From: a virus
DNA: 64,000 nt
Virus record (IMG/VR): IMGVR_UViG_3300033066_000693
Span: 1 to 64,000 of that record
Direction: 5' to 3' (one strand)
Shown here: positions 36,872 through 38,320 of the stretch, piece after piece
Layout of the letters: each line of letters opens with the position of its first letter
Numbering within the stretch: position 1 is the first letter of the stretch
The notes under the pieces: model-generated
What the model was told of the DNA's origin: nothing
Database searches by the model: none
What the model saw: only the letters and a program-made list of their open reading frames with translations
Translations under genes and position numbers: made by a program

Positions 36872-36937
36872 ATGGATTGGTTTACGTCGGATACGCATAA
36901 AGGAATTCTCTCCTCTAGATTGAATAAGAGGATATGA
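36872..36937 (+). pseudogene. orphan 5' fragment (MDWFTSDTH-) duplicating the first 9 codons of the metallophosphoesterase gene at 37702
   Basis: 27 nt encode an identical peptide with 6 synonymous changes; stop overlaps the LAGLIDADG ATG (ATGA). Confidence 0.4.
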
Positions 36938-37686
36938 AGAATTCCAACTTACTGCGATTACTAGACAATACCCCTCAAGCTTACTACTGGATCGGCTTTC
37001 TCATTGCCGATGGTCATTTCTCTGCAAAGAGATTGCATCTGGTTCTTGCTCAAAAAGACAGACACCATGTTGAGCGATTCTCTCGATTTGTAGAATCGAG
37101 AGTAGAGCCTTTTTCCTACAAAAAGTCTATCGGTATAAGGTTTATGGATTCTAACGTTATTCCCAAGCTTCGAAAGAAGTTTGGGATATGTAATAACAAA
37201 ACCCATAACCCATGTAAGATAGACATATCTGATAGAGATTTGTTTCTGGCATTCTTGATTGGCTTCATAGACGGCGATGGCTGTATATGCAAAAACAAGA
37301 ACAGGGAAGATAGCCATATCAAAATCAAGTGTCACTCTTCATGGTTAGCCAATTTTGAATCGTTTAGGAAGCAGTTATCAAAGATTTTGCAGGTCGAAGT
37401 ATCTGAACCAAAAATCAACAAACAAGGTTATGCCAACTGGAACATAACCAACACAGCTATTCTTCGAACTTTGAAACTAAAAACACAAGAGCTTGATCTA
37501 CCAGTTCTTCAGCGAAAGTGGAATCGAATAAATGAAAGCTACATAAGCCGACAAGAAAAAGGAAAAGAAAGGATCGAACAAGTCCGCATATTACTCGCTG
37601 ATGGAGTCAGTAAAAAAGAAATTGCAAGACAATTGGGTGTTGCAAAATGTTCAATATCACAAATTATCAAGAGAAACAATCTCTAG
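36934..37686 (+). CDS. LAGLIDADG homing endonuclease (two-motif, free-standing)
   Basis: YWIGFLIADGHF and FLAFLIGFIDGDGCI; AT-rich. Confidence 0.8.
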   Translation: MKNSNLLRLLDNTPQAYYWIGFLIADGHFSAKRLHLVLAQKDRHHVERFSRFVESRVEPFSYKKSIGIRFMDSNVIPKLRKKFGICNNKTHNPCKIDISDRDLFLAFLIGFIDGDGCICKNKNREDSHIKIKCHSSWLANFESFRKQLSKILQVEVSEPKINKQGYANWNITNTAILRTLKLKTQELDLPVLQRKWNRINESYISRQEKGKERIEQVRILLADGVSKKEIARQLGVAKCSISQIIKRNNL

Positions 37687-37701
37687 AAGGAGGAAGTCGT
37701 T

Positions 37702-38320
37702 ATGGATTGGTTTACTAGCGACACGCACTTTCGACCATGCAAACATCATTGGATACGCCAAAAGACCGTTTGCCACAGTCGAAGAGATGAACGAAGCGCT
37801 GCTTCGGAACATCAACGCAAAAGTACAGCCTAATGACAGGCTCTTCCATTTGGGAGACTTTGCAAAGAGTAAAATTGAATACTTCAGGAAAGCGATTAAC
37901 TGTCGCAATGTTGTTTTGATCTTGGGCAACCATGATCGAATCAACTATCGCAGTACGCTGTTTTCTGGAGTCTTCGATAGGTTCACTCTTAAGACCGAGA
38001 TTGACGGCGAGCGGAAAGACATTGTTCTTGACCATTATGCAATGAAGGTTTGGAACAAGTCTCACTATGGAGCTTGGCAGCTTTACGGTCATAGTCATGG
38101 AGGTCTTCCTGACGACGAAACGGCTTTGGCCTTCGACGTTGGAGTTGATTGTCACAACTACATGCCTCTTAATCTCCAAGATATCAAAGCTATCATGGCG
38201 AAGAAGAAGTGGGTAGACCCCCTCATCAAGTGGGCGCAAGAGAAGGCTCTCTGGAAGCCCTTTGACCATCATAAGCCTAAGGAATATAAACCTGAGAGCG
38301 AGTGGGCTAGCGAGGAATAA
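37702..38320 (+). CDS. calcineurin-like metallophosphoesterase carrying an apparent +1 frameshift about 37730
   Basis: motif I SDTHF in the frame of ATG 37702 (RBS AGGAGGA); motifs GDF and GNHD in the next frame; the first frame stops at 37831. Confidence 0.55.

Follow-up and report, generated by a model that had tools for sequence, protein, structure and literature searches.

A LAGLIDADG homing endonuclease cassette within a phage phosphoesterase gene, with a putative +1 frameshift site at its downstream junction

In a 64,000-nucleotide (nt) stretch of viral DNA (positions 1 to 64,000 of IMG/VR record IMGVR_UViG_3300033066_000693, the whole of which is referred to here as the window), the gene for a LAGLIDADG homing endonuclease is located inside a metallophosphoesterase (MPE) gene, between two copies of the first nine MPE codons (Table 1). 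These two 27-mers, copy 1 (ATGGATTGGTTTACGTCGGATACGCAT) and copy 2 (ATGGATTGGTTTACTAGCGACACGCAC), both translate as MDWFTSDTH and differ at six positions, all of them silent, as an earlier note on this DNA had described. One of the differences is a serine switch from TCG to AGC, which cannot be reached by single silent steps. A scan of the 64-kb window for identical peptides of at least seven amino acids (aa) within 4 kb of each other yielded five pairs, among which only the MDWFTSDTH duplicate and a tRNA-associated repeat attained at least nine aa, and the MDWFTSDTH duplicate is exceptional within the window, beyond chance. The same note had correctly described how copy 1 runs on into a stop codon that overlaps the start codon of the two-motif endonuclease open reading frame (ORF; overlap ATGA), and how copy 2 is preceded by a ribosome-binding site (RBS) of its own.

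The earlier note had also let copy 2 continue into the phosphoesterase, and this part did not hold. Copy 2 is in frame 1 and reaches a stop at 37833, after 43 codons, whereas the remainder of the gene (the MPE body) is in frame 2. At the junction, CAC TTT C GAC CAT, there is a surplus base between Phe10 and Asp11, and this single extra pyrimidine shifts the body by +1 against copy 2. If one T is deleted, or if 36898 is joined to 37730, a 205-aa MPE results in which the DxH, GD and GNHD motifs align with those of homologues. Public gene calls present the gene either as 177–179 aa from an internal Met or as 239 aa (with the start in the window at 37601, inside the endonuclease gene), and DxH is in neither. 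Other in-frame starts for the body (e.g., ATT at 37706) were rejected, as the resulting peptides (IGLLATRTF..., ITLPAIHTF...) are not conserved and lack DxH.

The duplicate and its junction are not products of misassembly. The endonuclease protein was present on 12 contigs (JGI and Logan assemblies, from different samples; source samples are JGI 3300045311–3300045318, SRR23702537–41 and SRR32380195), and every contig that extended to the junction was identical there, including the extra base. Since the junction was identical in at least nine independent assemblies (including loci L124–L131; L numbers designate the related loci throughout) of different samples, the extra base is not an assembly artefact. 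Moreover, the architecture recurs in related contigs: four more cassette lineages, with endonucleases 58–64% identical to that of the window, showed the same order of copy 1, leader, endonuclease, RBS and copy 2, and the same +1 offset. Their junctions read TTT C AAT (L004), TTT T AAT (L133–L139, with TAA as zero-frame stop), TTT T GAT (L042, with TGA as zero-frame stop) and TTT C GGC (L140), next to TTT C GAC in the window. CAY TTT Y is present in about 15 lineages; together with the conserved codon that comes next, it was seen in the window, L140, L004, L133, L042, L166, L181 and L245–L255. At these +1 sites, L133, L042 and L166 have a stop as the A-site codon, and CGN occupies this place in the window, L140, L181 and L246–L253.

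Table 1. Features of the interrupted phosphoesterase locus (positions in the window)
Feature	Position	Strand	Remarks
Candidate sigma-70-like promoter, TTGACT, 17 nt spacer, GATAAT	36778..36806	+	10/12 matches; original MPE gene promoter
Copy 1, the recipient's start and first nine codons (MDWFTSDTH)	36872..36898	+	native position, native RBS
Leader ORF, 21 codons	36872..36937	+	copy 1 plus KGILSSRLNKRI; 12 codons past copy 1 to TGA at 36935–36937
LAGLIDADG homing endonuclease gene, 250 aa	36934..37686	+	two motifs and a C-terminal helix-turn-helix
Shine-Dalgarno sequence AGGAGG	37688..37693	+	cassette-borne; 8 nt 5′ of the copy 2 ATG
Candidate hairpin, GTCGT/TGG with CTA/GCGAC	37696..37722	+	around the copy 2 AUG; 6 nt between its end and the shift codon
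Copy 2, cassette-borne start and nine codons (MDWFTSDTH)	37702..37728	+	source of the DxH metal-binding motif
Zero-frame dead-end ORF, 43 aa	37702..37833	+	product if the ribosome does not shift
Putative +1 frameshift site CAC_UUU_C_GAC	37726..37735	+	extra base C37732, or equally one T of the run
Phosphoesterase (MPE) body, DHANII...GD...GNHD..., 195 codons	37733..38320	+	+1 relative to copy 2; Pfam Metallophos; PHROG 547

The cassette spans from about 36899 to 37732, and only 78 of the 831 nt between copy 1 and 37729 are non-coding. Reading frames along the locus run 2, 1, 1, 2, and the endonuclease gene has its own ATG and stop. The leader junction (CAY|RAAGGAATTYTCTCCT...AAGAGGATATGA) is kept in L004, L133 and L140, and an upstream copy 1 is also present in L174, L175 and L043. 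The TTGACTTTTTC...GCCGATAAT block of this promoter region is likewise found 5′ of alleles that lack the insert (L001–L003, L049) as well as of L004. The candidate promoter would now drive the leader, the endonuclease and the phosphoesterase, and translation of the endonuclease would be coupled to the host gene's own start via the ATGA overlap.

The endonuclease carries the motifs GFLIADG (D26) and GFIDGDG (D115), with D26/G27 and D113–G116 invariant among 18 homologues. It matches Pfam LAGLIDADG_3 with 38.2 bits (cut-off of 22.5), HTH_7 at its C-terminus and PHROG 4645 ('endonuclease'), and shows weak phmmer matches to the solved LAGLIDADG enzymes 2dch, I-HjeMI and I-AniI. Judged by these motifs and profile matches, the product of the 250-aa ORF is a free-standing LAGLIDADG homing endonuclease. 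Phage LAGLIDADG enzymes are usually reported within introns or inteins. The ratio of nonsynonymous to synonymous substitution rates (dN/dS) of the endonuclease is about 0.1 between lineages (0.11 for L004 vs. L133). No DNA match to positions 36000–39000 was found among GenBank phages, and among cultured phages a protein search revealed no endonuclease closely related to this one (best 28–37% identity over part of the length), so that there is no annotated reference. A single-sequence endonuclease scan of viral contigs returned no matches and a two-sequence profile was needed to retrieve relatives from them; a metagenome scan yielded two short contigs only, L042 and L043.

Some of the relatives show apparent breaks in the endonuclease gene, i.e., an in-frame TGA at three conserved Trp positions (L190, L213, L179, L216; endonuclease 1501–2290) or a TAG at a conserved Gln position (position 1723 of L174). 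Decay of the endonuclease gene was considered and rejected here, as these phages appear to use codes with TGA=Trp or TAG=Gln. In L030–L032, a dead-end copy 1 (MKLTIELVPQTAW...) and a copy 2 (MILTIELVPASSFYNN...; positions 2625–2700 and 3675–3760) stand on either side of a distant LAGLIDADG gene (29% identity), with copy 2 in frame with its own gene body; this is an N-terminal duplication in an unrelated target gene, with no frame break.

The interrupted gene matches Metallophos and PHROG 547, and its profile matches PDB entry 1xm7 (E = 1e-14), the chain of which starts with MMYFISDTHFYHENII. The motifs occur in the expected order, with D7-T-H9 in copy 2 and G51-D52 and G75-N76-H77-D78 in the body, and the full set is assembled only in the trans-frame product. 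On these profile and motif matches, the gene is a calcineurin-like phosphoesterase. DxH is the first metal-binding motif of the calcineurin-like fold and a body without it should be inactive, so that copy 2 must be joined to the +1 frame for the enzyme to work.

Selection on the body was evident from substitution patterns. Between L004 and L133, the synonymous rate (dS) is 0.80 for the endonuclease and 0.68 for the body, and these similar values indicate that both bodies co-diverged with their endonuclease. The body dN/dS is 0.02 at 97% protein identity, i.e., a stronger constraint than on the endonuclease itself. Copy 2 differs between cassette lineages by almost only synonymous changes (nonsynonymous differences per site, pN, of 0.04–0.13 vs. 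synonymous differences per site, pS, of 0.5–1). Among the interrupted MPE genes, all 41 that could be assessed have complete bodies of 154–226 codons with the GD and GNH motifs, the other two running off their contigs. Judging from these comparisons, the phosphoesterase is unlikely to be a pseudogene, and the bodies past the break are under strong purifying selection.

The point of insertion could be defined from uninterrupted MPE homologues, which do exist in relatives and read MDWFTSDTH(F/L)(D/G/N)HANII.... In L044, L045 and L049, the insert-free site is ...TTTACNTCAGAYACNCAY|TTYGAYCAYGCAAAY..., and L049 is the insert-free counterpart, from the same sample, of L004: it has CAC|TTT AAT CAC where L004 has CAC TTT C AAT CAC. 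Homology between both loci breaks off precisely behind codon 9 and sets in again with codon 10. The insertion thus lies exactly between codons 9 and 10, and the cassette consists of the leader, the endonuclease, the RBS, copy 2 and one pyrimidine. This bears out the earlier claim that an endonuclease gene was inserted at MPE codon 9 and is flanked by a duplicated N-terminal segment.

A second pair of loci delimits the cassette on its right-hand side. L133 and L042 share 96–100% nucleotide identity over the 3′ half of the endonuclease gene, copy 2 and the extra T, and identity falls to about 67% right after this extra base, where the body of L042 is of a different MPE allele (the L001/L044 type). 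The position of this breakpoint shows the extra base to be part of the cassette and the codon 9/10 junction to be the right edge of the latter; as read from the alignment, the pattern is the footprint of a recent homing event. Mobility is thereby indicated both by a presence/absence polymorphism at a fixed site and by a recombination tract that ends there. Copy 2 is identical in L133 and L042 despite their different bodies. The earlier note had taken the silent differences between both copies for recoding that confers resistance to cleavage; ancestry, with copy 1 being the recipient gene's and copy 2 the cassette's, appears to explain them better.

The duplication (repeat D3) reaches about 15 nt 5′ of the ATG, into the RBS region (AAGGA...). 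Because it extends upstream of the ATG in this way, it suggests that copy 2 and its RBS derive from the 5′ end of an MPE gene that was once located directly behind a free-standing endonuclease, and an endonuclease directly 5′ of an MPE gene is indeed the arrangement still seen in many distant relatives. The architecture in the window would then go back to a codon 9/10 break in a recipient without left-hand homology, mended from a donor of this kind.

A broader view of the endonuclease family was obtained by running endonuclease profiles against viral contigs and metagenomes, which retrieved dozens of relatives with 29–48% identity, most of them immediately 5′ of an MPE gene of the same family. 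In about 15 lineages this MPE gene is intact, and in the others, short inserts interrupt it no more than four codons away from the same motif. Written as last conserved codon, insert and landing codon, these correspond to shifts of +1 (UUU-Y; L166, L181), +5 (ACC UA ACU, ACU UA ACU, ACU UA ACA, ACG UG ACU), +6 and thus in frame (CUG UAA CUG, CUG UAA CUA, ACG UGA ACA, CAU UAG CAU), +7 (CAU UAG G CAC, CAY UAG N UAY), +8 (ACC UAG GC ACU, ACC UAG UG ACC, ACG UAG UU ACG), +9 (ACA UAG UGA ACU) and +12 (ACC UAG GUA GGA ACU). Among these, CUG UAA CUG is from L174, CAU UAG CAU from L213, ACA UAG UGA ACU from L205 and ACC UAG GC ACU, there followed by CAU, from L010. Every one of the 19 inserts of 5–12 nt opens with a stop right after the last conserved codon, and 15 of the 19 end in a triplet synonymous with that codon; with a chance per case of about 0.08 for the stop and 0.05 for the matched codon, ten independent events correspond to p-values of 1e-11 and 1e-9, respectively. 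In three of the four unmatched inserts, G·U pairing with the same tRNA is possible. Overall, relatives show matched codons in 22 of 26 cases and an immediate stop in 22 of 26; in the window, the codons match (UUU/UUC) and the A-site CGA is not rare. In phages with TGA=Trp or TAG=Gln codes, the junction stop differs and is still a valid stop in that code.

Interruption of the MPE gene is closely associated with the endonuclease, since it occurs at none of the 79 closest homologue loci without endonuclease vs. 26 of the 41 endonuclease-adjacent junctions (Fisher p = 4e-16, or p = 5e-8 with conservative lineage counts, the tallies being of contigs or lineages and not of independent events). Pattern scans that were independent of the endonuclease revealed further junctions of the hop type (15 contigs) and the +1 type (11 contigs), all with complete bodies; about half of these no longer have an upstream LAGLIDADG gene, a remnant is left in one, and another has a GIY-YIG-like ORF in its place. 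Moreover, L237 is nearly the same allele as L010, with the endonuclease absent and the insert kept. As read from these loci, the inserts persist after loss of the endonuclease.

The locus with the GIY-YIG-like ORF (L240) has the insert ACC TAG GT ACT in its MPE gene, and the ORF (...NIYIYLWEEFNTVYVGRT...) replaces the LAGLIDADG gene about 850 nt into the 1.8 kb upstream, an arrangement that recalls the endonuclease replacement described for MobA cassettes. In uninterrupted MPE genes adjacent to an endonuclease (L009, L011, L021, L027, L149, L157, L167, L212), the DxH motif is often DEH, DGH, DLH, DSH or DWH, and all 79 homologues without endonuclease have DTH. The non-Thr residue could reflect immunity by substitution, or a mere subfamily difference.

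Taken together, it seems probable that the locus is an endonuclease cassette that is mobile and has, at its junction, an insert that prevents self-cleavage and is passed by +1 frameshifting. With somewhat less assurance, we lean towards extending this to a LAGLIDADG family in uncultured phages that targets the DxH-coding start of MPE genes and whose 1–12 nt inserts would be protective and be read by +1 slippage or stop-hops. The insertion point is presumed to be the centre of the endonuclease recognition site, so that a perfect in-frame junction of copy 2 and body would rebuild this site; the extra base would alter the half-site spacing and thereby shield the carrier genome from its own nuclease. 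Ribosomes would initiate at 37702 and decode MDWFTSDTH-F, after which the peptidyl-tRNA-Phe would slip from UUU (37729–37731) to UUC (37730–37732) and decoding would resume at GAC (37733). The slippage product (MDWFTSDTHFDHANII...) would have the register of uninterrupted homologues, giving a full-length MPE (MDWFTSDTHF-DHANII...) with the predicted single-chain start MDWFTSDTHFDH... and the predicted trans-frame peptide MDWFTSDTHFDHANIIGYAK. Full-length MPE would be produced only by ribosomes that slip, probably with low efficiency.

Protection of a carrier or resistant genome from cleavage appears to be the most economical purpose for the inserts, because they sit at the insertion point, travel with the endonuclease, survive its loss, alter the DNA spacing and spare the protein. 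Resistance is likelier to be determined by the extra base, in the middle of the presumed target, than by the silent changes.

A number of observations weigh against this interpretation. The case for frameshifting is entirely comparative, and the target of the nuclease and its cleavage position are presumed. The loci compared are phylogenetically related, searching by pattern introduces a bias, and the limits of hop junctions were set by eye against the conserved motif. For the window's own population, a search via the upstream DUF6065 protein retrieved cassette-bearing contigs only and no allele free of the insert. Homopolymer extension (e.g., TT to TTT) is the commonest type of indel and automatically creates re-pairing potential, so that the matched codon at +1 sites is weak evidence by itself. 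The zero-frame A-site codon of the window, CGA, accounts for 17% of the Arg codons of the phage and is not rare; a 'hungry codon' role for it, which was considered, finds no support in the phage's own codon usage. In the window, no Shine-Dalgarno-like stimulator was found at a prfB-like spacing, and the sole candidate RNA element, the hairpin, offers only a hint. Its eight pairs are 100% paired in five sequences, with compensatory changes in two pairs (slid controls are 25–65% paired), and thermodynamic z-scores are weak (–0.7 to –1.4), as is the RNAalifold consensus around the junction (–6.9 kcal/mol). At least some of the codons chosen in copy 2 (AGY for Ser, GAY for Asp) are paired to the spacer 5′ of it in this conserved hairpin, which may instead gate initiation at the copy 2 AUG. 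Finally, as cassette transfer can break a healthy gene (L042), an intact body is no proof of function in every lineage.

This last point leads to the alternative that survives best, although it seems unlikely: the MPE gene would be dead, each invasion by an out-of-frame cassette inactivating a dispensable gene, with copy 2 and the intact body as recent leftovers. The very recent transfer of the L042 cassette onto a foreign MPE allele would fit, as would the lack of an obvious frameshift stimulator, the commonness of CGA in the window, and the fact that gene callers find truncated ORFs only. Against this, the 41 assessable bodies keep their catalytic motifs across lineages of saturated synonymous divergence, the low body dN/dS between L004 and L133 being maintained despite their dS. 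Copy 2 and its RBS are under coding constraint inside the cassette, the design of the inserts as a stop plus a matched codon is non-random, and inserts and bodies outlast the endonuclease. In very recent invasions such as that of L042, the gene may be a pseudogene.

Repair at the RNA level is more doubtful still. Positions 36899–37729 would be spliced out as an intron, or the extra base would be removed by RNA polymerase slippage or editing. Joining 36898 to 37730 would indeed yield the correct protein, and the copy 1 coding sequence is also kept in several lineages, with Ile5 in both copies of L140. This conservation is nevertheless explained by copy 1 being the recipient's own sequence, and in copy 1 of L043 the metal-binding His is replaced by Gln. 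Moreover, the 5–12 nt inserts in relatives without copy 1 cannot be introns, and a run of three or four T residues is far too short for efficient transcriptional slippage. A Rfam search of 36700–37900, at the gathering threshold or at E ≤ 10, revealed no intron family or other relevant RNA family. A group I intron was rejected on the C, rather than U, before the 5′ junction in L004 and L133, a last base that is T or C and never G, the lack of a match to Intron_gpI and the small non-coding share. A group II intron was rejected on its 5′ end (AAAGG or GAAGG, i.e., RAAGG rather than GUGYG) and the absent Rfam match, and an intein on the endonuclease's own ATG and stop, the leader TGA and the succession of frames. 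The boundary nucleotides, the Rfam result and the few non-coding positions thus agree with the earlier note in that the locus is not an intron.

A split enzyme is very unlikely. A 10-residue N-terminal peptide would assemble with a body started separately by re-initiation, as in the topoisomerase and NrdA enzymes split by MobA and MobE; endonuclease-split phage enzymes that reassemble are known (10.1101/2022.08.31.505936), and a body-frame GTG (L015) or TTG (L141) overlaps the junction stop in two relatives. Against this, most loci, among them the window, L004, L010, L008 and L025, show no body-frame start codon near the junction, the N-terminal piece would count just 10–24 residues and yet include the metal ligands Asp and His, with which the first beta-strand of the fold begins, and the matched landing codons would be left unexplained.

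The model of the earlier note, in which copy 2 is the in-frame functional start and the six silent changes give cleavage resistance, appeals to a known route of immunity to homing endonucleases (recoded target sites) and to all six differences being silent, but is barely tenable given that copy 2 is out of frame with the body and moves with the cassette whatever the recipient, and that the copies of L140 differ at only four third positions. In T4, furthermore, polymorphisms alone did not block MobA, and the bypass insert did (Manning & Atkins, 10.1101/2022.08.31.505936).

The surroundings of the cassette differ among phage lineages. Directly 5′ of it, the window has two tandem, overlapping DUF6065 paralogues (35194–36003 and 35963–36763), and L004 and L133 have opposite-strand glycosyltransferase genes in their place, so that the left flank varies by lineage and the promoter/5′ untranslated region block is common. 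On the 3′ side of the phosphoesterase, a 90-aa helix-turn-helix ORF (38325–38597) has a 24-nt stretch (EIA..L.V helix, repeat D14) in common with the C-terminal helix-turn-helix of the endonuclease, and is present in some and absent from other contigs of the same phage population (L124 vs. L126; L256 vs. L257). It is followed by a 213-aa HNH/endonuclease VII-like gene (38947–39588), called as 188 or 213 aa among contigs.

The stop codon of the endonuclease ORF is TAG, in the same frame as copy 2 (37684–37728). The phage has a tRNA with a CTA anticodon (amber-suppressor type; labelled 'Pyl' by ARAGORN) at 24364–24438, with a 21-nt partial duplicate of its 3′ part 653 nt downstream (25055–25075), and readthrough of the TAG by this tRNA would carry the endonuclease on into MDWFTSDTHF. 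Under code 11, the long ORFs of the window are normal, so that reassignment of TAG, if any, would have to be partial or confined to a stage. The endonuclease ORF of L010 enters the MPE start without any stop, and in L004 the frames differ, so that the same-frame arrangement may be incidental.

The earlier note had counted three instances of this architecture in 26 kb of the window, two of them with HNH genes. A similar design was indeed found at a tRNA-Arg locus (51.05–51.58 kb), which is probably one of these HNH cases, whereas the HNH gene at 38947–39588 has no flanking duplication. At the former locus, tRNA-Arg(TCT) (51054–51127) is followed by a 117-aa HNH-like ORF (51190–51543) and a diverged duplicate of the 3′ half of the tRNA (51533–51580; 77% identity), with compensatory T-stem changes (GCAGG/CCTGC vs. 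GCTGG/CCAGC); a third, weaker copy is located at 50205–50252. Elsewhere in the window, four tandem tRNA-Glu genes (anticodons TTC and CTC; 47905–48244) adjoin an ORF (48493–49356) for a class I Glu/Gln tRNA synthetase catalytic domain (Pfam tRNA-synt_1c, E = 3e-63).

Among known systems, free-standing phage endonucleases such as MobE in Aeh1 nrdA and the T-even Seg/Mob enzymes resemble the present one in being intron-less and intein-less, in the edge of the recombination tract, in the use of host-gene expression signals and in the co-existence of alleles with and without endonuclease (PMC2988022, PMC10448857). An N-terminal duplication with a frame-shifted junction has, in contrast, not been described for MobE/Seg/Mob.

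With regard to the proposed frameshift, known +1 sites with a shifty stop or P-site slippage (prfB CUU_UGA_C, influenza PA-X UCC_UUU_CGU, amalgavirus UUU_CGN) offer the closest likeness, as the P-site tRNA is able to re-pair from UUU to UUY. UUU_CGN is a known +1 site (influenza PA-X, amalgavirus) that operates at a low level and without stimulator, and the UUU_UGA and UUU_UAA of L042, L133 and L166 are classic shifty stops (PMC5009743). As expected of a programmed +1 frameshift, the shift site is conserved across diverged sequences and the downstream frame is under purifying selection. The 'savior indel plus low-level compensatory frameshifting' (PMC5009743) is alike in that an indel useful for another reason is compensated in translation. 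Unlike these +1 frameshift systems, the window has no Shine-Dalgarno sequence at the prfB spacing, no autoregulatory logic, a CGA that is not rare, and a site at codon 10.

The matched-codon-over-stop junctions of the relatives (CUG UAA CUG, ACG UGA ACA) are similarly reminiscent of the synthetic stop-hops of E. coli (Weiss et al. 1987, as cited in PMC5009743), although those were laboratory constructs, and the window has the +1 form and no hop. Natural in-frame stop-hops were unknown according to a 2016 review (PMC5009743). The byp elements of Magnusiomyces differ in being 27–55 nt long and mitochondrial.

The closest parallel overall is the gene 60/MobA cassette of T4, which, as Bonocora et al. 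2011 are cited in PMC5009743, combines a homing endonuclease with a 50-nt translational bypass; the gene 60 insert travels together with MobA, against which it protects, and its take-off and landing codons match, the A-site codon being a slow one (10.1101/2022.08.31.505936). In both systems, an endonuclease gene lies within a conserved enzyme gene at a metal-binding motif, and a non-coding downstream insert co-travels with the endonuclease, outlasts its loss and must be overcome by the ribosome. Here too, the insert is linked to and co-transferred with the homing endonuclease, as indicated by the conserved junctions, the L133/L042 comparison and the above Fisher test. A take-off codon with a stop or slow codon behind it and a matched landing codon further on is seen likewise, with the reservation that the CGA of the window is not rare; the proposed role is shielding of the carrier genome from its own nuclease. 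The differences are that the present enzyme is a LAGLIDADG protein with a helix-turn-helix and MobA is of the HNH type; that the target is a phosphoesterase rather than topoisomerase II; that nine codons are duplicated behind a new RBS rather than a gene being split into two working polypeptides; and that the insert measures 1 nt, or 5–12 nt in relatives, rather than 50 nt. There is neither a homologue of the take-off stem-loop nor sequence homology, and with a nascent chain of about 10–25 residues (10 in the window) the nascent-peptide signal of gene 60 cannot apply.

The authors of the gene 60 work call their cassette 'unique' (10.1101/2022.08.31.505936), and the tie between bypassing and a homing endonuclease has so far rested on T4 gene 60/MobA and its homologues alone; the literature yielded no report joining LAGLIDADG enzymes, phosphoesterases and recoding. 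If the interpretation proposed here is correct, the family would comprise the first natural stop-hops, and dozens of natural variants (+1, +5, +6, +7, +8, +9 and +12) of one site. This graded series of 1–12 nt, with several take-off tRNAs, three stop codons and three genetic codes, all near the start of an ORF and in a short and easily cloned context, would be ideal for testing the minimal needs of peptidyl-tRNA re-pairing. Since gene callers render such genes as truncated ORFs, recoded 'immunity scars' next to other homing endonucleases may hide in metagenomes. A ribosome-read spacer that breaks a nuclease site and leaves the protein unchanged would then be a convergent and general answer in the conflict between selfish nucleases and phage genes, and after gene 60/MobA the present family would be the second case, independent in evolution, of a homing endonuclease being united with translational recoding.

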